Assembly: GCF_044647545.1 (NCBI RefSeq)
Contig: NZ_CP172818.1
Direction: 5' to 3' (one strand)
Length of the DNA: 64,000 nt
Origin: Escherichia coli
GTDB lineage: Bacteria > Pseudomonadota > Gammaproteobacteria > Enterobacterales > Enterobacteriaceae
The notes beneath the pieces are model-generated. The model was not told the DNA's origin. It was given only the letters and a program-made list of their open reading frames with translations, and made no database searches. Below are positions 794 through 50,052 of this stretch, piece by piece. Both the position numbers and the translations under genes were made by a program. Within the stretch, counting starts at the first letter, position 1. Each line of letters opens with the position of its first letter.

Positions 794-2862
<2,069 letters not shown>

Positions 2863-3089
2863 TGTTTGTACTCCCAAAGGTTCGCAACAATTTGTAAGCG
2901 TGTATTCTTAAAAAAGCTCACGTTCGTCACCAGCTAAATCTGGTATGAATTTCAGCCTAAATTGTTACAAAGCATATTAAACAGCAGCTTAAGTATACAA
3001 TTTATTCGGCGAAACATTATTGATTCTGTTGATATGATCACGTTATACCCAATGTGCGCATTATCAAACAGACAAAGGGAATCAACGAG

Positions 3090-3566
3090 ATGAAAACGCC
3101 CCTGGTTACCCGGGAAGGGTATGAAAAACTCAAACAAGAGCTTAATTATCTCTGGCGTGAAGAACGCCCGGAGGTCACAAAAAAGGTGACCTGGGCCGCA
3201 AGTCTGGGCGACCGCAGCGAAAATGCTGACTATCAGTATAATAAAAAGCGCCTGCGTGAAATCGACCGTCGCGTGCGCTATCTCACTAAATGCATGGAAA
3301 ATCTCAAAATCGTCGATTACTCCCCGCAGCAGGAAGGCAAAGTCTTTTTTGGCGCGTGGGTGGAGATTGAAAACGACGATGGCGTGACTCACCGTTTCCG
3401 TATTGTCGGCTACGATGAAATTTTTGGCCGTAAAGATTACATCTCTATCGATTCCCCGATGGCTCGCGCATTGCTGAAAAAAGAGGTGGGCGATTTGGCG
3501 GTGGTGAATACCCCTGCCGGGGAAGCGAGCTGGTATGTTAATGCTATCGAGTACGTGAAACCGTAA
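3090..3566 (+). CDS. greB: transcription elongation factor GreB
   Basis: MKTPLVTREGYEKLKQELNYLWREERPEVTKK...; track ORF starts 12 codons upstream, trimmed to MKTPLV; divergent from ompR as in E. coli. Confidence 0.93.
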   Translation: MKTPLVTREGYEKLKQELNYLWREERPEVTKKVTWAASLGDRSENADYQYNKKRLREIDRRVRYLTKCMENLKIVDYSPQQEGKVFFGAWVEIENDDGVTHRFRIVGYDEIFGRKDYISIDSPMARALLKKEVGDLAVVNTPAGEASWYVNAIEYVKP

Positions 3567-3662
3567 GGAAGAGTCTTAACCTCCTGCCGATGGCTGGCAT
3601 TTTTGCCAGCCAGTCCGTATAACTATCCCCTGATTTTTGATCCGAAAAGATGAACTCAAACC

Positions 3663-5984
3663 ATGATGAATGATTCGTTCTGCCGCATTATTGCGGGTGA
3701 AATTCAGGCGCGCCCGGAACAGGTTGACGCTGCCGTTCGCCTGCTTGACGAAGGGAATACCGTGCCGTTTATCGCACGTTATCGTAAGGAAATCACCGGC
3801 GGTCTGGATGACACGCAGCTGCGTAATCTGGAAACGCGTCTGAGCTATCTGCGCGAGCTGGAAGAGAGACGTCAGGCGATCCTCAAGTCCATTTCCGAGC
3901 AAGGCAAACTCACCGATGATCTGGCGAATGCCATCAACGCCACCCTAAGCAAAACCGAACTCGAAGACCTCTACCTGCCCTACAAACCTAAACGCCGCAC
4001 CCGTGGGCAAATCGCCATTGAAGCAGGGCTTGAGCCGTTGGCCGATCTGCTGTGGAGCGATCCGTCACACACGCCAGAAGTCGCCGCTGCACAATATATT
4101 GATGCCGATAAAGGCGTGGCAGATACCAAAGCCGCGCTGGACGGCGCGCGCTATATCCTGATGGAACGGTTTGCCGAAGATGCCGCGCTGCTGGCGAAAG
4201 TGCGTGATTATCTGTGGAAGAACGCGCATTTGGTCTCAACCGTGGTGAATGGTAAAGAAGAGGAAGGGGCGAAATTCCGCGACTATTTCAATCATCACGA
4301 ACCGCTGTCCACGGTGCCTTCTCACCGCGCGCTGGCGATGTTCCGTGGTCGTAACGAAGGCATACTTCAGCTTTCGCTGAATGCCGATCCGCAGTTCGAA
4401 GAGCCGCCAAAAGAGAGCTATTGCGAGCAAATCATCATGGATCACCTTGGCCTGCGCCTGAACAATGCCCCGGCGGATAGCTGGCGCAAAGGTGTGGTGA
4501 GCTGGACGTGGCGCATCAAGGTGTTGATGCATCTGGAAACTGAACTGATGGGCACCGTGCGCGAACGCGCGGAAGATGAAGCAATCAACGTCTTTGCCCG
4601 TAACCTGCACGATCTGCTGATGGCGGCCCCAGCCGGACTGCGTGCAACGATGGGCCTCGATCCGGGTCTGCGTACCGGGGTAAAAGTAGCGGTGGTCGAT
4701 GCAACTGGCAAACTGGTGGCGACCGATACCATTTATCCACATACCGGACAAGCCGCAAAAGCAGCGATGACCGTTGCTGCCCTGTGTGAAAAGCATAACG
4801 TTGAACTGGTGGCGATCGGCAACGGTACAGCTTCCCGCGAAACCGAGCGTTTCTATCTCGACGTGCAGAAGCAGTTCCCGAAAGTGACCGCGCAGAAAGT
4901 GATCGTCAGCGAAGCTGGCGCGTCGGTTTACTCGGCTTCCGAGCTGGCAGCACAGGAGTTCCCGGATCTCGACGTTTCGCTGCGTGGCGCGGTGTCTATC
5001 GCCCGCCGTTTGCAGGATCCGCTGGCGGAGCTGGTGAAAATCGATCCGAAATCTATCGGCGTAGGTCAGTATCAGCATGACGTCAGCCAGACGCAACTGG
5101 CCCGCAAACTGGACGCAGTAGTAGAAGACTGCGTAAACGCCGTTGGCGTCGATCTCAACACCGCTTCTGTTCCGCTGTTAACTCGCGTGGCGGGCCTGAC
5201 GCGCATGATGGCGCAAAACATCGTTGCCTGGCGCGATGAGAACGGTCAGTTCCAGAACCGTCAGCAACTGCTGAAAGTGAGCCGTCTGGGGCCGAAAGCC
5301 TTCGAGCAGTGCGCGGGCTTCTTGCGCATTAACCATGGTGATAACCCGCTGGACGCGTCTACCGTCCACCCGGAAGCCTATCCGGTGGTGGAACGCATTC
5401 TGGCAGCAACACAGCAGGCACTGAAAGATCTGATGGGTAACAGCAGCGAGTTGCGTAACCTGAAAGCGTCTGACTTTACTGATGAAAAATTCGGTGTACC
5501 GACGGTAACTGACATCATCAAAGAGCTGGAAAAACCGGGTCGCGATCCGCGTCCGGAATTTAAAACCGCTCAGTTTGCCGATGGCGTCGAAACGATGAAC
5601 GACCTGCAACCGGGTATGATCCTCGAAGGTGCGGTGACCAACGTCACCAACTTTGGCGCGTTTGTCGATATTGGCGTGCATCAGGACGGCCTGGTTCACA
5701 TCTCTTCATTGTCGAACAAGTTTGTGGAAGATCCGCATACCGTGGTGAAAGCGGGCGATATTGTGAAGGTGAAAGTGCTGGAAGTGGATCTTCAGCGCAA
5801 ACGTATCTCCCTGACTATGCGTCTGGACGAGCAGCCTGGCGAAACCAACGCTCGTCGCGGCGGCGGTAATGAACGTCCGCAGAACAACCGCCCGGCAGCC
5901 AAACCGCGTGGGCGTGAAGCGCAGCCTGCCGGTAATAGCGCGATGATGGATGCGCTGGCGGCGGCAATGGGCAAAAAACGTTAA
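3663..5984 (+). CDS. tex: Tex-like transcription accessory protein with C-terminal S1 domain
   Basis: 773-aa [46 protein letters not shown]...; YqgF/HhH region and C-terminal S1 domain; known as yhgF in E. coli. Confidence 0.93.
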
Positions 5985-6092: not shown

Positions 6093-6290
6093 TCCACAAG
6101 CAAACTCATAATATATCCCGTTAATATTTATCACTTCATTAACAACTGAAACCTTAATTAAACATTAACCAGCCCTAATAATTCGTCATGCGAATTATAT
6201 TTTCGCTGCGATATAACCTTGAGCCATATCAACATTGAGTCAGATTATTATTCAAACCAACATTCACACACATTTTAAGTATTGCTGATA

Positions 6291-6314
6291 GAAACCATTC
6301 TCATTATCATTGTA
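6291..6314 (+). promoter_or_regulatory. putative Fur box in the feoABC promoter region
   Basis: gaaaccattctcattatcattg resembles the Fur consensus GATAATGATAATCATTATC; lies about 110 bp upstream of feoA in an AT-rich leader. Confidence 0.45.
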
Positions 6315-6421: not shown

Positions 6422-6649
6422 ATGCAATACACTCCAGATACTGCGTGGAAAATTACTGGCTTTTCCCGTGAAATCAGCCCGGCATATCGCCAAAAACTGC
6501 TTTCTCTTGGCATGTTACCTGGCTCCTCTTTTAATGTGGTGCGCGTCGCTCCACTCGGCGACCCCATTCATATCGAAACCCGTCGTGTGAGCCTGGTATT
6601 ACGCAAAAAAGATCTGGCCTTATTAGAAGTGGAAGCGGTTTCCTGTTAA
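6422..6649 (+). CDS. feoA: ferrous iron transport protein A
   Basis: 75-aa [40 protein letters not shown]...; directly upstream of feoB. Confidence 0.93.
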
Positions 6650-6665
6650 TACGGTGATAACAACA

Positions 6666-8987
6666 ATGAAAAAATTAACCATTGGCTTAATTGGTAATCC
6701 AAATTCTGGCAAGACAACCTTATTTAACCAGCTCACTGGCGCACGTCAGCGTGTAGGTAACTGGGCTGGCGTTACCGTCGAACGTAAAGAAGGGCAATTC
6801 TCCACCACCGATCATCAGGTCACCCTGGTGGACCTGCCTGGCACCTATTCTCTGACCACCATCTCATCGCAGACCTCGCTCGATGAGCAAATCGCCTGTC
6901 ACTATATTCTGAGTGGCGACGCCGACCTGCTGATTAACGTGGTGGATGCGTCTAACCTTGAGCGTAACCTGTACCTGACGCTGCAACTGCTGGAACTCGG
7001 CATTCCCTGCATCGTGGCACTGAACATGCTCGACATTGCCGAGAAGCAAAATATTCGCATTGAAATTGATGCTCTGTCGGCGCGTCTTGGCTGCCCGGTG
7101 ATCCCGCTGGTTTCAACCCGTGGTCGCGGTATTGAAGCGCTCAAGCTGGCGATTGATCGCTATAAAGCTAACGAAAATGTGGAACTGGTGCATTACGCTC
7201 AGCCGCTGCTCAACGAAGCAGATTCACTGGCAAAAGTGATGCCTTCCGACATCCCGCTGAAACAACGTCGCTGGCTGGGCCTGCAAATGCTGGAAGGCGA
7301 TATCTACAGCCGCGCCTACGCCGGTGAAGCGTCGCAGCATCTGGATGCCGCCCTCGCCCGTCTGTGTAATGAGATGGACGATCCGGCGCTGCACATTGCC
7401 GATGCGCGTTACCAGTGCATTGCTGCCATCTGTGATGTGGTAAGCAACACCCTGACGGCAGAACCCAGCCGTTTCACCACTGCGGTAGATAAAATCGTGC
7501 TCAACCGTTTCCTCGGTCTGCCGATTTTCCTCTTTGTGATGTACCTGATGTTCTTGCTGGCTATCAACATCGGCGGGGCGTTACAGCCGCTGTTTGACGT
7601 CGGCTCCGTGGCGCTGTTTGTGCATGGTATTCAGTGGATTGGCTACACGCTCCACTTCCCGGACTGGCTGACTATCTTCCTCGCCCAGGGCCTGGGTGGC
7701 GGTATTAACACCGTGCTGCCACTGGTGCCGCAGATCGGCATGATGTACCTGTTCCTCTCCTTCCTCGAGGACTCCGGATATATGGCGCGTGCGGCGTTTG
7801 TGATGGACCGTCTGATGCAGGCGCTGGGCTTGCCGGGGAAATCCTTTGTACCGCTGATCGTTGGTTTCGGTTGTAACGTACCGTCGGTAATGGGCGCACG
7901 TACGCTTGATGCACCGCGTGAACGTCTGATGACCATCATGATGGCACCGTTTATGTCCTGCGGCGCGCGTCTGGCTATCTTCGCCGTATTCGCGGCTGCT
8001 TTCTTCGGGCAGAACGGTGCGCTGGCGGTCTTCTCGCTGTATATGCTGGGTATCGTGATGGCGGTGCTAACTGGCCTGATGCTCAAGTACACCATCATGC
8101 GCGGTGAAGCGACGCCGTTTGTCATGGAGCTGCCGGTCTACCATGTACCACACGTTAAAAGCCTGATTATCCAGACCTGGCAGCGTCTGAAAGGCTTCGT
8201 TCTGCGTGCTGGTAAAGTGATCATCATCGTCAGCATTTTCCTGAGCGCTTTCAACAGCTTCTCGCTGAGCGGGAAAATCGTCGATAACATCAACGACTCG
8301 GCGCTGGCGTCCGTCAGCCGGGTGATCACCCCGGTCTTCAAGCCAATTGGTGTGCATGAAGATAACTGGCAGGCAACGGTTGGCCTGTTTACAGGTGCCA
8401 TGGCGAAAGAAGTGGTAGTGGGTACGCTCAACACCCTCTACACCGCAGAAAATATTCAGGACGAAGAGTTCAATCCGGCAGAGTTTAACCTCGGTGAAGA
8501 GCTGTTCAGTGCGGTAGATGAAACCTGGCAGAGCCTGAAAGACACCTTCAGCCTTAGCGTACTGATGAACCCCATTGAAGCCAGCAAAGGCGACGGCGAA
8601 ATGGGTACCGGGGCGATGGGCGTGATGGATCAGAAATTCGGTAGCGCAGCAGCAGCTTACAGCTACCTGATTTTCGTCCTGCTGTATGTACCATGTATCT
8701 CGGTGATGGGAGCCATCGCCCGTGAATCAAGCCGTGGCTGGATGGGCTTCTCCATCCTGTGGGGGCTGAATATCGCTTACTCGCTGGCAACATTGTTCTA
8801 TCAGGTCGCCAGCTACAGTCAGCACCCAACTTACAGCCTGGTGTGCATTCTGGCGGTTATCCTGTTTAACATTGTGGTTATCGGTTTGCTGCGTCGCGCG
8901 CGTAGCCGGGTGGATATCGAACTGCTGGCAACCCGCAAGTCGGTAAGCAGTTGCTGCGCAGCCAGCACCACCGGTGATTGCCATTAA
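6666..8987 (+). CDS. feoB: ferrous iron transporter FeoB (GTPase plus permease)
   Basis: [25 protein letters not shown] (G1 motif GNPNSGKT), long polytopic C-terminal region; start trimmed to MKKLTIG (773 aa). Confidence 0.95.
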
Positions 8988-9223
8988 TGGCTTCACTTAT
9001 TCAGGTGCGTGATTTGCTGGCGTTACGGGGCCGTATGGAAGCGGCCCAGATAAGCCAGACATTGAACACTCCGCAGCCAATGATTAACGCCATGCTGCAA
9101 CAGCTGGAAAGCATGGGCAAAGCCGTGCGGATTCAGGAAGAACCTGACGGCTGCCTCTCTGGCAGTTGTAAAAGCTGCCCGGAAGGCAAAGCCTGTCTGC
9201 GCGAGTGGTGGGCGCTGCGTTAA
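8987..9223 (+). CDS. feoC: FeoC, small winged-helix protein of the feo operon
   Basis: [50 protein letters not shown]... with the cysteine-rich segment [15 protein letters not shown]; ATG overlaps the feoB stop (TAATG). Confidence 0.9.
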
Positions 9224-28217: not shown

Positions 28218-29723
28218 ATGGAAACCAAAGATCTGATTGTGATAGGTGGCGGCATCAATGGTGCTGGTATCGCGGCAGACGCCGCTGGACGCGGTTTATC
28301 CGTGCTGATGCTGGAGGCGCAGGATCTCGCTTGCGCGACCTCTTCCGCCAGTTCAAAACTCATTCACGGTGGCCTGCGCTACCTTGAGCACTATGAATTC
28401 CGCCTGGTCAGCGAGGCGCTGGCTGAACGTGAAGTGTTGCTGAAAATGGCTCCGCATATCGCCTTCCCGATGCGTTTTCGCCTGCCACATCGTCCGCATC
28501 TGCGCCCGGCGTGGATGATTCGCATTGGTCTGTTTATGTACGATCATCTGGGTAAACGCACCAGCCTGCCGGGATCAACCGGTTTGCGTTTTGGCGCAAA
28601 CTCAGTGTTAAAACCGGAAATTAAGCGCGGATTCGAATATTCTGACTGTTGGGTAGACGACGCCCGTCTGGTACTCGCCAACGCCCAGATGGTGGTACGT
28701 AAAGGCGGTGAAGTGCTTACTCGTACTCGTGCCACGTCTGCTCGCCGCGAAAACGGCCTGTGGATTGTGGAAGCAGAAGATATCGATACCGGCAAAAAAT
28801 ACACCTGGCAGGCGCGCGGCCTGGTGAACGCCACCGGCCCGTGGGTGAAACAGTTCTTCGACGAGGGGATGCATCTGCCTTCGCCTTATGGCATTCGCCT
28901 GATCAAAGGCAGCCATATTGTGGTGCCACGCGTGCATACCCAGAAGCAAGCCTACATTCTGCAAAACGAAGATAAACGTATTGTGTTCGTGATCCCGTGG
29001 ATGGACGAGTTTTCCATCATCGGCACCACCGATGTGGAATACAAAGGCGATCCGAAAGCGGTGAAGATTGAAGAGAGTGAAATCAATTACCTGCTGAAAG
29101 TGTATAACGCGCACTTTAAAAAACAGCTTAGCCGTGACGATATCGTCTGGACCTATTCCGGTGTGCGTCCGCTGTGTGATGATGAGTCCGACTCGCCGCA
29201 GGCTATTACCCGTGATTACACCCTTGATATCCATGATGAAAACGGCAAAGCCCCGCTGCTGTCGGTATTCGGCGGTAAGCTGACCACCTACCGCAAACTG
29301 GCGGAACATGCGCTGGAAAAACTGACGCCGTATTATCAGGGTATTGGCCCGGCGTGGACGAAAGAGAGCGTGCTGCCGGGAGGTGCCATTGAAGGCGACC
29401 GCGACGATTATGCCGCTCGCCTGCGCCGCCGTTACCCGTTCCTGACTGAATCGCTGGCACGTCACTACGCACGCACTTACGGCAGCAACAGCGAACTGCT
29501 GCTCGGCAATGCGGGAGCGATAAGCGACCTCGGGGAAGATTTCGGTCATGAGTTCTACGAAGCGGAACTGAAATACCTGGTGGATCACGAATGGGTCCGT
29601 CGCGCCGACGATGCCCTGTGGCGTCGCACAAAACAAGGCATGTGGCTAAATGCGGATCAACAATCTCGTGTGAGTCAGTGGCTGGTGGAGTATACGCAGC
29701 AGAAGTTGTCGCTGGCGTCGTAA
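28218..29723 (+). CDS. glpD: aerobic glycerol-3-phosphate dehydrogenase (FAD)
   Basis: METKDLIVIGGGINGAGIAADAAGRGLSVLMLEAQDLACATSSASSKLIHGG... (FAD-binding GGGING); start trimmed to METKD. Confidence 0.95.
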   Translation: METKDLIVIGGGINGAGIAADAAGRGLSVLMLEAQDLACATSSASSKLIHGGLRYLEHYEFRLVSEALAEREVLLKMAPHIAFPMRFRLPHRPHLRPAWMIRIGLFMYDHLGKRTSLPGSTGLRFGANSVLKPEIKRGFEYSDCWVDDARLVLANAQMVVRKGGEVLTRTRATSARRENGLWIVEAEDIDTGKKYTWQARGLVNATGPWVKQFFDEGMHLPSPYGIRLIKGSHIVVPRVHTQKQAYILQNEDKRIVFVIPWMDEFSIIGTTDVEYKGDPKAVKIEESEINYLLKVYNAHFKKQLSRDDIVWTYSGVRPLCDDESDSPQAITRDYTLDIHDENGKAPLLSVFGGKLTTYRKLAEHALEKLTPYYQGIGPAWTKESVLPGGAIEGDRDDYAARLRRRYPFLTESLARHYARTYGSNSELLLGNAGAISDLGEDFGHEFYEAELKYLVDHEWVRRADDALWRRTKQGMWLNADQQSRVSQWLVEYTQQKLSLAS

Positions 29724-29787: not shown

Positions 29788-29886
29788 GCCTGATGCGCTA
29801 CGCTTATCAGGCCTACGTGGTTTATGCAATATATTGAATTTGCATGATTTTGTAGACAAAATAAGGCGTTCACGCAGCATCCGGCA
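29788..29886. repeat. REP/BIME element (two inverted REP units) downstream of glpD
   Basis: gcctgatgcgctacgcttatcaggcctac and, in opposite orientation, gtagacaaaataaggcgttcacgcagcatccggcat. Confidence 0.75.
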
Positions 29887-29929: not shown

Positions 29930-30223
29930 TCAAGGAATTACCGCAAAGCCCACGCAATCATACCCAACGTAACAAAACTCAGACACATTACCCACTCGCC
30001 CAGAGAAAAATAGCAGTAATGCGCCCAGCGTCAGCATAAAGACGTTGAGTAGAAGATAAATTGTTGGTGTAAAGAGTAAATTGCAAAACTCAAGAATAGC
30101 GGCAAGCCCGGCCCCCAGCATGGCAACAACCGCTGCCAAAAATTGCGCCAGTATGGGGATGCCAAAAAAAGTCATTACCAGCGAGGTCAAAATCCATTTT
30201 CCGTTTTGCATTATTCTTTCCAT
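29930..30223 (-). CDS. yzgL: small membrane ORF (yzgL-like), coding status uncertain
   Basis: 97-aa hydrophobic ORF between glpD and glgP, where yzgL lies in K-12; I cannot verify the protein sequence from memory. Confidence 0.4.
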   Translation of the reverse strand: MERIMQNGKWILTSLVMTFFGIPILAQFLAAVVAMLGAGLAAILEFCNLLFTPTIYLLLNVFMLTLGALLLFFSGRVGNVSEFCYVGYDCVGFAVIP

Positions 30224-30339: not shown

Positions 30340-32805
<2,466 letters not shown>

Positions 32806-46109: not shown

Positions 46110-47147
46110 TTACTTCGCGAGAGTCACTGTGGAGGGAGAGGCTTGCTCAAAACCGCGTTCAAGGATTTCCAAATTGGTAAGAACTTCAGATTCCTTGACG
46201 TAATTTGGCGCACCGTTGGTGATGGTTTGATACAACGCATCATAAACGCGCCCGTAATCGCCCATCTCCGGCTTCATCTCTTCTCTGACCGTCACCCCCT
46301 CGTCATTGACATACTCCAGCACACCGACCGAATCATCCGCTGCGAATCCCGGTTCGCCCGGCATAATATTAGCCTTGAGGCTGGTTTCCTGCTGGTCGAT
46401 ACCGTATTTAATAAACGAACCTTTCTTACCGTGAACGATAAATTTCGGATAATCGATTTTCACCAGATGGCTGGTTTTGACGATGGCTTTCAGGTCGCCA
46501 TAAAACAGCTGCGCTTCAAAGGTGTCGTCAGGATTGGCTTTATTACGCAGGCTGCGGATGTCATAAGCGACGTGATCCGGGCGACCGAACAGAGAAATAA
46601 TCTGGTCCATCGTATGCACACCAAGGCCATAGAACGCGCCATCCTGCGGCAGCCCAGGTTTGGTTTCTGCCACCGGGCGGTAATAGTCAAAATGGCTTTC
46701 CACTTCAACAATCTCTCCCAGCTTGCCGCTTTCAATCGCTTTTTTCGCCGTCAGAAAACAGGAATCAAAGCGACGATTCTGATACGGCGTGACGGTCAGC
46801 CCTTTACTTTTCGCCAGCGCAAAAAGTTCTTTCGCTTGCGCAAGCGTCGGAGTGAATGGTTTTTCGACCAGCACATTTTTCCCGGCTTCCAGCGCGCGCT
46901 TCGCGTACTCGAAGTGGCTGTCCGCATGGGTGCAGACAACAACCAGCTTAACATCGGGATCGTTTAGCACTTCGTCGAGATCGCTGGTGAAATGGATATG
47001 AGAGTAAATGGGAGCCTGTTCTTCCGGCTTCGCATGGCGACGAAAAATATGCGCGACATGCCAGCTATCCTTGCGGTTAAGTACATACGGCAGATGGTAA
47101 CGGGTGGTGCTTTTGCCGAAGCCAATAAAGGCGCAGTTGATGACCAT
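46110..47147 (-). CDS. yhhX: Gfo/Idh/MocA-family NAD(P)-dependent oxidoreductase
   Basis: 345-aa ORF MVINCAFIGFGKSTTRYHLPYVLNRKDSWHVAHIFRRH... (Rossmann GFGKS). Confidence 0.9.
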   Translation of the reverse strand: MVINCAFIGFGKSTTRYHLPYVLNRKDSWHVAHIFRRHAKPEEQAPIYSHIHFTSDLDEVLNDPDVKLVVVCTHADSHFEYAKRALEAGKNVLVEKPFTPTLAQAKELFALAKSKGLTVTPYQNRRFDSCFLTAKKAIESGKLGEIVEVESHFDYYRPVAETKPGLPQDGAFYGLGVHTMDQIISLFGRPDHVAYDIRSLRNKANPDDTFEAQLFYGDLKAIVKTSHLVKIDYPKFIVHGKKGSFIKYGIDQQETSLKANIMPGEPGFAADDSVGVLEYVNDEGVTVREEMKPEMGDYGRVYDALYQTITNGAPNYVKESEVLTNLEILERGFEQASPSTVTLAK

Positions 47148-47269
47148 GATTTCGTCCTTTTTAAGGGGGTTATTTACACCTTAGCGCAAAGCGGACGTGG
47201 TTCCTACTGGAGTGCGCATAACGAACACAAGCACTTCCCGTGGATAATTTGAAAACGAAAGATCAAAAA

Positions 47270-47359
47270 AAAAGCCAGCACCCGGCTGGCTAAGTAATAC
47301 TGGAAGCAATGTGAGCAATGTCGTGCTTTCAGGTTCTCCGCGAGGGTCTTCCTGATCGC
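47270..47359 (-). ncRNA. ryhB: RyhB small RNA (Fur-repressed, iron-sparing response)
   Basis: Minus strand reads GCGATCAGGAAGACCCTCGCGGAGAACCTGAAAGCACGACATTGCTCACATTGCTTCCAGTATTACTTAGCCAGCCGGGTGCTGGCTTTT, matching the 90-nt RyhB sequence from memory, with its terminator hairpin and U-run; located between yhhX and yhhY as in K-12. Confidence 0.88.
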
Positions 47360-47361
47360 AA

Positions 47362-47386
47362 GACAATAATAATCATTCTCATTCGC
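47362..47386 (-). promoter_or_regulatory. Fur box overlapping the ryhB promoter
   Basis: caataataatcattctcattcgc immediately upstream of the ryhB 5' end; shares the core cattctcatt with the candidate feoA Fur box. Confidence 0.55.
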
Positions 47387-47480
47387 ACTTGTCCAACACT
47401 TTTTGCAAAAAAATGCATTTGACTCGCATTTGAAAGTCAATGATGTTGAAAGGGACATTTACCCCAAAGAGGACAAAGGA

Positions 47481-48305
47481 ATGAGTGAGATAGTAATACG
47501 CCACGCAGAAACACGCGATTACGAGGCCATCAGGCAGATTCACGCCCAGCCGGAGGTGTATTACAACACGCTACAGGTGCCTCATCCTTCAGAACAAATG
47601 TGGCTGGAACGACTCACCGCTCGCCCTGGCATCAAGCAGTTAGTCGCCTGTATTGATGGAATCGTCGTAGGCCATCTCACCATTGACGTGCAACAACGCC
47701 CACGCCGCAGTCATGTTGCCGACTTTGGTATCTGTGTCGACTCCCGTTGGAAGAACCGCGGCGTCGCCAGCGCCCTGATGCGAGAGATGATTGAAATGTG
47801 CGACAACTGGTTGCGGGTAGATCGTATTGAGCTAACGGTGTTCGTCGATAACGCGCCAGCAATTAAGGTCTATAAAAAATTTGGCTTTGAGATTGAAGGG
47901 ACTGGCAAGAAGTACGCGCTGCGTAAGGTGAATCGGGAGATCATGGGGTGCGCAACTTACGATGTGTGGGTAGGTGCTGCGGCTCCTCCGGCCCCGCCCG
48001 CTACGGCGGGCTACGGCGCGCGGCCGCCGCCGCAAACGGCGCCGCACGAATCGGGCCGCGGGGCCGCCTGCCCGCTCCGCGCCCCGGCGGTCCCGCGCAC
48101 GGGCAGGGCACCGCGCGGGGCCAGCGCGGGCGCGCAGCGGTTACGCGACCCCGGGGGGTGCGCGTTCGGTGACGCACGGGCGACGCGGGGGCAGGCCGCG
48201 CACCCGACGGGGGGGACGGGGCGGCCGCGGCCCGCCGGGGCCCAGCGCGACGGGGGGCCCGACGGGCCGGCGGGGCGAGCCCTCACCTACCGGGAGAGGG
48301 CTTAA
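47481..48305 (+). CDS. yhhY: GNAT N-acetyltransferase YhhY with a disrupted 3' end (148 native residues fused to an anomalous Ala/Gly/Arg/Pro-rich tail)
   Basis: MSEIVIRHAETRDYEAIRQIHAQPEVYYNTLQVPHPSEQMW...GTGKKYALR is recognisable as YhhY (about 162 aa in K-12); from 47925 the frame runs into ~80% GC low-complexity sequence and stays open to 48305; the native C-terminus is absent. Confidence 0.6.
   Translation: MSEIVIRHAETRDYEAIRQIHAQPEVYYNTLQVPHPSEQMWLERLTARPGIKQLVACIDGIVVGHLTIDVQQRPRRSHVADFGICVDSRWKNRGVASALMREMIEMCDNWLRVDRIELTVFVDNAPAIKVYKKFGFEIEGTGKKYALRKVNREIMGCATYDVWVGAAAPPAPPATAGYGARPPPQTAPHESGRGAACPLRAPAVPRTGRAPRGASAGAQRLRDPGGCAFGDARATRGQAAHPTGGTGRPRPAGAQRDGGPDGPAGRALTYRERA
47925..48305. 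other. anomalous ~80% GC low-complexity block replacing the yhhY 3' end and the yhhY-ggt spacer
   Basis: About 380 bp dominated by gcg/ggc/ccg repeats; open in several frames on both strands as expected for stop-poor GC-rich sequence; flanking E. coli DNA is about 50% GC. Confidence 0.75.
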
Positions 48306-48309
48306 GATA

Positions 48310-50052
48310 TTAATACCCCGCCGTTAAATCATCCACCGAGCGCGAGTCGGATGCACCGTACAACTCACCATCCGACCCAACCATAATGCTTTGCGTACTG
48401 CCCATCGCCTCTTTCAGCGCCACTTTCTGACCTTTTGCTTCCAGCAGCTTGAGCGTATCCGGGCTAAACCCTTTTTCGACACGCAGCTCGTCCGGCAACC
48501 ACTGATGGTGGAAACGTGGCGCATTGGTCGCTTCGGCGACATTCATACCACAATCGATGCTATTCACCACCATTTGCAGCACGGTAGTGATGATCCAGCT
48601 CCCGCCAGGGCTACCGGTAACCAGCCAGGTTTTACCGTCTTTCACCACAATGGTGGGTGACATCGACGACAGCGGGCGTTTATTCGGCCCGACCGCGTTG
48701 GCGTCACCACCCACCAGCCCGTAAACGTTCGGTACGCCCGGTTTGGCGGAGAAATCATCCATCTGGTTATTGAGCAAAATACCGCTCTCGCCCGCGACAA
48801 TGCCCGTCCCGAAGGTGGTGTTCAGCGTATAGGTCACCGCCACCGCGTTACCGTCTTTATCCACCACTGAGTAATGGGTAGTTTGATTACTCTCATAAGG
48901 CGCAAGCTTGCCGGGGCGAATTTCGCTGGATGGCTTCGCTTTATTGATATCGATTTGATCGGCAATAGATTTGGCATAGGCTTTATTGGTCAGCGCCTGC
49001 CACGGTACTTTGACAAAATCCGGATCGCCAAGATATTCCGAGCGGTCGGCGTAGGCGTATTTCTCAGCTTCTGCCATGATTTGCATCGCGTCGGCACTGC
49101 CAAAGCCGTACTTCTTCATATCGAAGTTTTCCAGGATATTGAGGATCTGCACGATATGAATCCCACCGGAAGATGGCGGTGGCATCGAGTAAACCTGATA
49201 CCCGCGATATTCGCCGCTAATCGGTGTACGTTCGACCGCTTTATACGCCGCTAAATCTTCTTTAGTGATCAAGCCACCGTTTTTCTGCATCTCCTGGGCA
49301 ATCTGTTCCGCTATCGTGCCTTTGTAGAATTCGTCCGGGCCGTTTTCGGCAATCATCTCCAGGCTCTTTGCCAGGTTCGCCTGCACCAGCTTGTCACCCT
49401 TTTTCAGCGGCGCGCCCTCTTTCCAGAAGATAGCCTTGCTGTTTTCGTGATTCGGCAATACTTCGCTACCGTAGGTTTTGAGATCGTCAGCCAACGCGTC
49501 GTTAACGATAAAACCATCGCGTGCCAGTTTAAACGCCGGTTGCACCACTTTGTTCAACGGCATGGTGCCGTACTTCTCCAACGCCAGCGAGAAACCTGCT
49601 ACCGTACCGGGCGTACCAGAAGCCAGATGCGAAGTGAGTGATTTTTTGCTGTCCGGGTTACCCTGATCATCAAGGAACATATCGCGGGTCGCTTTGGCGG
49701 GTGCCATTTCGCGGAAATCGATAGCCGTGGTATTGCCATTTTTCGAGCGGATTAACATAAAACCACCGCCGCCCAGATTCCCCGCCTGCGGATGCGTTAC
49801 CGCCAGCGCGTAGCCCACTGCCACGGCAGCATCAACGGCATTCCCGCCCTCCTTGAGGATATCCACCCCCACCTGAGTGGCAGTAGCATCTACAGACGCC
49901 ACCATCCCCTGTTTCGCGCGTACCGGATGAAAGACATCTTCCTCCACGCCGTAAGAAACAGGAGACGGCGCAGGTGGCGCGGCTACCGTACTAAAACAAC
50001 TTCCTGTGAACAGAGCAGCAATGGCCACCCGGCGTAAAAACGTCGGTTTTAT
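48310..50052 (-). CDS. ggt: gamma-glutamyltranspeptidase (periplasmic)
   Basis: MIKPTFLRRVAIAALFTGSCFSTVAAPPAPSPVSYGVEEDVFHP... (signal peptide); start trimmed to MIKPTF (580 aa). Confidence 0.95.
   Translation of the reverse strand: MKPTFLRRVAIAALFTGSCFSTVAAPPAPSPVSYGVEEDVFHPVRAKQGMVASVDATATQVGVDILKEGGNAVDAAVAVGYALAVTHPQAGNLGGGGFMLIRSKNGNTTAIDFREMAPAKATRDMFLDDQGNPDSKKSLTSHLASGTPGTVAGFSLALEKYGTMPLNKVVQPAFKLARDGFIVNDALADDLKTYGSEVLPNHENSKAIFWKEGAPLKKGDKLVQANLAKSLEMIAENGPDEFYKGTIAEQIAQEMQKNGGLITKEDLAAYKAVERTPISGEYRGYQVYSMPPPSSGGIHIVQILNILENFDMKKYGFGSADAMQIMAEAEKYAYADRSEYLGDPDFVKVPWQALTNKAYAKSIADQIDINKAKPSSEIRPGKLAPYESNQTTHYSVVDKDGNAVAVTYTLNTTFGTGIVAGESGILLNNQMDDFSAKPGVPNVYGLVGGDANAVGPNKRPLSSMSPTIVVKDGKTWLVTGSPGGSWIITTVLQMVVNSIDCGMNVAEATNAPRFHHQWLPDELRVEKGFSPDTLKLLEAKGQKVALKEAMGSTQSIMVGSDGELYGASDSRSVDDLTAGY

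Follow-up and report, generated by a model that had tools for sequence, protein, structure and literature searches.

We identified a ryhB gene on the minus strand of an Escherichia coli chromosome, within a stretch of 64,000 nucleotides (64 kb, referred to here as the window). Judged from its sequence, this locus is almost certainly a functional copy. It is an ordinary E. coli ryhB, already known, and brings no new biology. As far as can be read from the DNA, the locus has the attributes of RyhB in model score, identity, synteny, Fur box, terminator and seed complementarity, and we saw no sequence features arguing against ryhB function.

Position and identity of the ryhB gene

The whole 64-kb window was scanned with Rfam 15 at gathering thresholds, which gave two matches in all. 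One was to the RyhB family (RF00057) at 47330..47266 on the minus strand, with 83.1 bits against a curated gathering score of 55 and an E value of 3.6e-14 (8.4e-16 when only a 1.5-kb sub-region was searched). The match spanned positions 1-67 of the 67 positions in the covariance model and had no non-canonical pairs. It was the only RyhB match in the window, where the gene is thus present in a single copy, and a permissive Rfam scan of 47000-48500 found nothing apart from RyhB. A sequence-only reading of this DNA had assigned RyhB to the minus strand of the yhhX-yhhY gap, and had proposed a covariance-model search and an alignment to MG1655 as checks. Both bore the assignment out, the first through this full-length match above threshold and the second through identity at 95 of 95 transcribed nucleotides when the window was aligned with both MG1655 and FDAARGOS_497, with no substitutions in the terminator stem or the seed region.

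In MG1655, ryhB (b4451) is located at NC_000913.3 3580922..3581016 on the minus strand and is flanked by yhhX and yhhY. The same arrangement was found here: yhhX occupies 46110..47147 (minus), ryhB 47359..47265 (minus), with the start codon of yhhY at 47481 (plus). The order yhhW-yhhX-ryhB-yhhY agrees with MG1655, and ryhB lies on the same strand as yhhX. The minus-strand reading of 46900-47900 includes GCGATCAGGAAGACC...GCCAGCCGGGTGCTGGC followed by nine T's, with ...TGGACAAGTGCGAATGAGAATGATTATTATTGTCTT upstream. The features of the locus are as follows.

47265..47359, minus strand: ryhB transcript, 95 nt long in the MG1655 annotation (b4451); its classical form of 90 nt stops at 47270
47390..47395, minus strand: -35 hexamer TGGACA, from the promoter consensus scan
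47366..47371, minus strand: -10 hexamer TATTAT at positions -12 to -7, from the same scan
47362..47380, read on the plus strand: predicted Fur box GACAATAATAATCATTCTC, 16/19 to GATAATGATAATCATTATC, the same in MG1655
47360, minus strand: promoter position -1, T versus C in MG1655, from the alignment
47314..47322, minus strand: core pairing segment GACAUUGCU, RyhB nucleotides 38-46, in the loop of the central hairpin
47273..47291, minus strand: intrinsic terminator hairpin AGCCAGC-CGGGT-GCTGGCT, with a 7-bp stem (5 G-C pairs) and a 5-nt loop
47265..47272, minus strand: 3' U-run, 9 T with the stem-closing T at 47273, from the sequence and the terminator scan

The 95 nucleotides of the transcript, the -35 and -10 hexamers, the Fur box, the terminator, both flanking genes and the orientation are those of K-12 MG1655. 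Differences from MG1655 near the gene were limited to the T instead of C at position -1 and, past the terminator toward yhhX, two substitutions and one 1-nt indel. FDAARGOS_497 (NZ_CP033850.1) was 100% identical over the 281 bp of 47200-47480, including the T at -1.

Control region, terminator and pairing segment

The two hexamers matched the promoter consensus at 10 of 12 positions with an 18-nt spacer and formed the only sigma-70-like site that the consensus scan detected in 47100-47560. The -10 hexamer precedes the K-12 5' end by 7 nt. For the Fur box, every 19-mer of the window was scored on both strands against the consensus GATAATGATAATCATTATC, the Fur motif as applied to MG1655 and CFT073 (PMC7157518). 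The predicted box had the top score on either strand, and the consensus at no more than 3 mismatches occurred once in the 64 kb versus not at all in 100 dinucleotide shuffles. The second-best scores were 14/19, with the overlapping register 47368-47386 among them. The box spans positions -3 to -21 and therefore covers the -10 hexamer, a geometry that would be expected for repression by occlusion. The sequence-only reading had pointed to a Fur-box-like motif, aataataatcattctcatt, over the promoter. This string is indeed present there, at 47365-47383 on the plus strand, but its register is 3 bp off and it scores only 12/19.

The 121 nt from the ryhB 5' end to the yhhY start codon were identical to K-12 except for one base, the T at -1, which falls outside the 19-bp Fur core and outside both hexamers. 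The exact 66-bp promoter/5' allele carrying this T was found in 394 of 5,405 complete E. coli genomes (~7%), FDAARGOS_497 included, and we therefore regard it as a natural minority allele and not as damage. The earlier description of the sRNA and its Fur box as intact holds, both being identical to K-12; the promoter is not strictly so, as this one position differs.

Another Fur box had been mentioned in the same window, about 41 kb away at feoABC, and its position was confirmed. The genes feoA, feoB and feoC occupy 6422-9223, with the feoA start at 6422, and the sites in front of them are approximately 41.06 kb from the ryhB box.

6290-6314, minus strand: two overlapping 13/19 Fur-like sites, GATAATGAGAATGGTTTCT and TACAATGATAATGAGAATG, ~110-130 bp upstream of feoA

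By sequence alone these sites are not above chance, as 14 sites of this score were found in the window, 12 of them elsewhere.

At the other end of the gene, the terminator hairpin was recovered by the terminator scan, by the minimum free energy and centroid folds, and in the Rfam consensus structure. The terminator string given in the sequence-only reading, gccagccgggtgctggc, was located at 47290..47274, inside this hairpin, and the accompanying U-run was present as a T-run reaching to 47265. A U-tailed terminator serves class I sRNAs as their Hfq-binding module, and the 3' U-run here would be such a tail, for Hfq binding as well as for termination. Stability of the whole-RNA fold was not above that of shuffled sequence (z = -0.67), as is usual among sRNAs whose seed is long and single-stranded; the value speaks neither for nor against function.

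The pairing segment GACAUUGCU falls inside the invariant portion of the Rfam alignment and is a perfect 9-nt complement of AGCAAUGUC, positions -4..+5 of MG1655 sodB, which span the start codon. The MG1655 gene was used because the sodB of this genome falls outside the window. The energy of the full-length RyhB/MG1655 sodB duplex was not better than that of shuffles, 24 of 300 of which reached the observed value, and only the exact 9-nt complement is therefore informative.

In K-12, Fe2+-Fur directly represses ryhB and the RNA accumulates on iron limitation, and RyhB together with Hfq pairs with mRNAs of sodB, sdhCDAB and other iron proteins, leading to their degradation and to an iron-sparing response (PMC3788343, a review that cites Massé and Gottesman 2002 and Vassinova and Kozyrev 2000). 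By analogy, we infer that in this strain, too, Fur binds, the RNA is expressed and depends on Hfq, and its targets are regulated. With enough iron, Fe2+-Fur would occupy the predicted operator at 47362-47380, overlapping the -10 hexamer, and transcription would be blocked; under iron scarcity, Fur would leave the operator. An RNA of ~90 nt would then start at 47359 and end at the intrinsic terminator near 47270-47265. Its central single-stranded region, with Hfq, would pair with the translation-initiation regions of non-essential iron-protein mRNAs, the proposed targets being sodB, sdhCDAB, acnB and others, and this pairing would block translation and cause RNase E-dependent decay, so that iron may be spared.

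The damaged 3' end of yhhY

The sequence-only reading had set the integrity of ryhB against a damaged yhhY 3' end about 500 bp away. The damage is real, with divergence starting from ~47926, approximately 540 bp from position 47386. Identity to K-12 YhhY stops at residue 148 of 162 and the last 14 codons are replaced; at the nucleotide level, the window departs from both MG1655 and FDAARGOS_497 at about 47926-47934. A GC-rich segment of ~350 bp (47926-48281, plus strand; 83% GC, with 100-bp windows up to 0.91) takes the place of the last yhhY codons and of the yhhY-ggt spacer, and it is the sole such stretch in the 64 kb. The reference sequence resumes near 48281, precisely with the terminator hairpin of ggt, and the yhhY ORF reads on to 48305, giving a product of 274 aa. 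In a comparison of 47926-48310 with positions 2128-5581 of the MG1655 extract, the window is also without the K-12 stretch yhhZ-yrhA::IS1E-yrhD-yrhB, which lies between yhhY and ggt, and has the GC-rich sequence in its place. FDAARGOS_497 has an intact 489-bp yhhY directly adjoining ggt, whereas the 3' end of this gene is replaced in the window.

The GC content per codon position revealed no coding periodicity in the GC-rich segment, the permissive Rfam scan of 47000-48500 gave no match within it, and a repeat search found no organised repeats. Searched with blastn against the 5,426 complete genomes of E. coli, the plasmids of PLSDB and the phages of INPHARED, the segment gave no match, although weak matches may be hidden by the low-complexity filter. 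An exact 28-mer of the segment did not occur in the collections of genome, metagenome and viral contigs, an exact 26-mer did not occur in genome or metagenome contigs, and the fused YhhY product of 274 aa, looked up by exact sequence, had no record. The segment may be foreign DNA inserted at a variable junction, a chimera of the assembly, or an artificial sequence or artefact. Only 1,238 of the 5,426 complete E. coli genomes gave a single match over 80% or more of 47000-49000. We read such coverage as yhhY adjoining ggt, and the yhhY-ggt junction is therefore variable, or prone to insertion, in E. coli.

Could the ryhB copy itself be decayed or silenced, and hence unexpressed or no longer regulated by Fur, for instance through the C→T change at -1 or through the GC-rich insertion? 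The one promoter difference from K-12 is at this position, and a possibly foreign segment of 83% GC does start ~540 bp upstream, past the divergent yhhY. However, the transcribed region, both hexamers and the Fur box are all identical to K-12, the T at -1 is common to 394 complete genomes, among them that of the clinical isolate FDAARGOS_497, and the ryhB-yhhY intergenic region (47360-47480) is untouched by the insertion. We consider decay or silencing very improbable and retain the reading of a functional ryhB gene. What happened at the yhhY 3' end is a matter separate from ryhB, whose gene and control region are untouched.

Distribution, annotation and meaning

The 95-nt RNA sequence was present in 5,424 of 5,426 RefSeq complete E. 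coli genomes. In 5,358 of these 5,424 genomes the match fell in the band of at least 99% identity and, the query being 95 nt, is therefore identical. The median was one place per genome; the sequence was almost always single copy and never on a plasmid. Fur-repressed iron-sparing sRNAs are also known from other bacteria, including RyhB/IsrE of Salmonella, RyhB of Vibrio, PrrF of Pseudomonas and NrrF of Neisseria (PMC3788343). They follow the same logic: their promoters carry a Fur box and, with Hfq, they repress mRNAs of iron proteins (PMC3788343). These sRNAs are divergent orthologues, paralogues or analogues, whereas the element in the window has the E. coli type sequence and is single copy.

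Among the matches listed, the ryhB-matching region was an annotated feature in none of 63 non-K-12 RefSeq E. coli records. The PGAP feature table of FDAARGOS_497 passes from yhhY straight to yhhX, and among the records compared an ncRNA feature for ryhB was found only in the curated MG1655 record. It had been claimed that the gene is invisible to an ORF track and would be missed by ORF-only annotation. In substance this is correct for these 63 records, but two chance ORFs of the mechanical ORF list, of 61 aa (47181..47366) and 84 aa (47204..47458), cross the locus on the minus strand, and the sRNA is therefore unrecognised rather than literally invisible.

That one of these two listed ORFs encodes a small protein, instead of or besides the sRNA, is hardly conceivable: the 84-aa ORF begins upstream of the promoter and runs through the terminator, the 61-aa ORF has a TTG start that precedes the transcription start site, neither MG1655 nor FDAARGOS_497 nor the RefSeq records listed carry an annotated CDS there, and conservation of the region is accounted for by the covariance model.

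The second Rfam match in the window was to the ES036 (CssrF) sRNA (RF02751) at 29809-29851 on the minus strand, with 43.6 bits against a gathering score of 37.6 and four non-canonical pairs flagged. It lies in a gap between a 506-aa plus-strand ORF ending at 29723 and minus-strand ORFs of 97 aa (29930..30223) and 815 aa (30340..32787); being non-coding, it too would escape an ORF track.

It is improbable that the T at -1 shifts the start site, the basal level of RyhB or the tightness of Fur control, or, alternatively, that the GC-rich insertion alters local transcription or supercoiling. If the allele had a measurable effect, some lineages would have a slightly different iron-sparing set point; an effect of the insertion would act on the divergent yhhY/ryhB promoters from ~540 bp away. 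The intact ryhB shows that the damage to the yhhY 3' end stopped short of the ryhB-yhhY control region. As ryhB is unannotated in the 63 listed records, protein-only tracks under-describe this region, and flagging the gene is a matter of annotation hygiene only: a key regulator of iron homeostasis resides inside a 333-bp intergenic gap that otherwise appears "empty".
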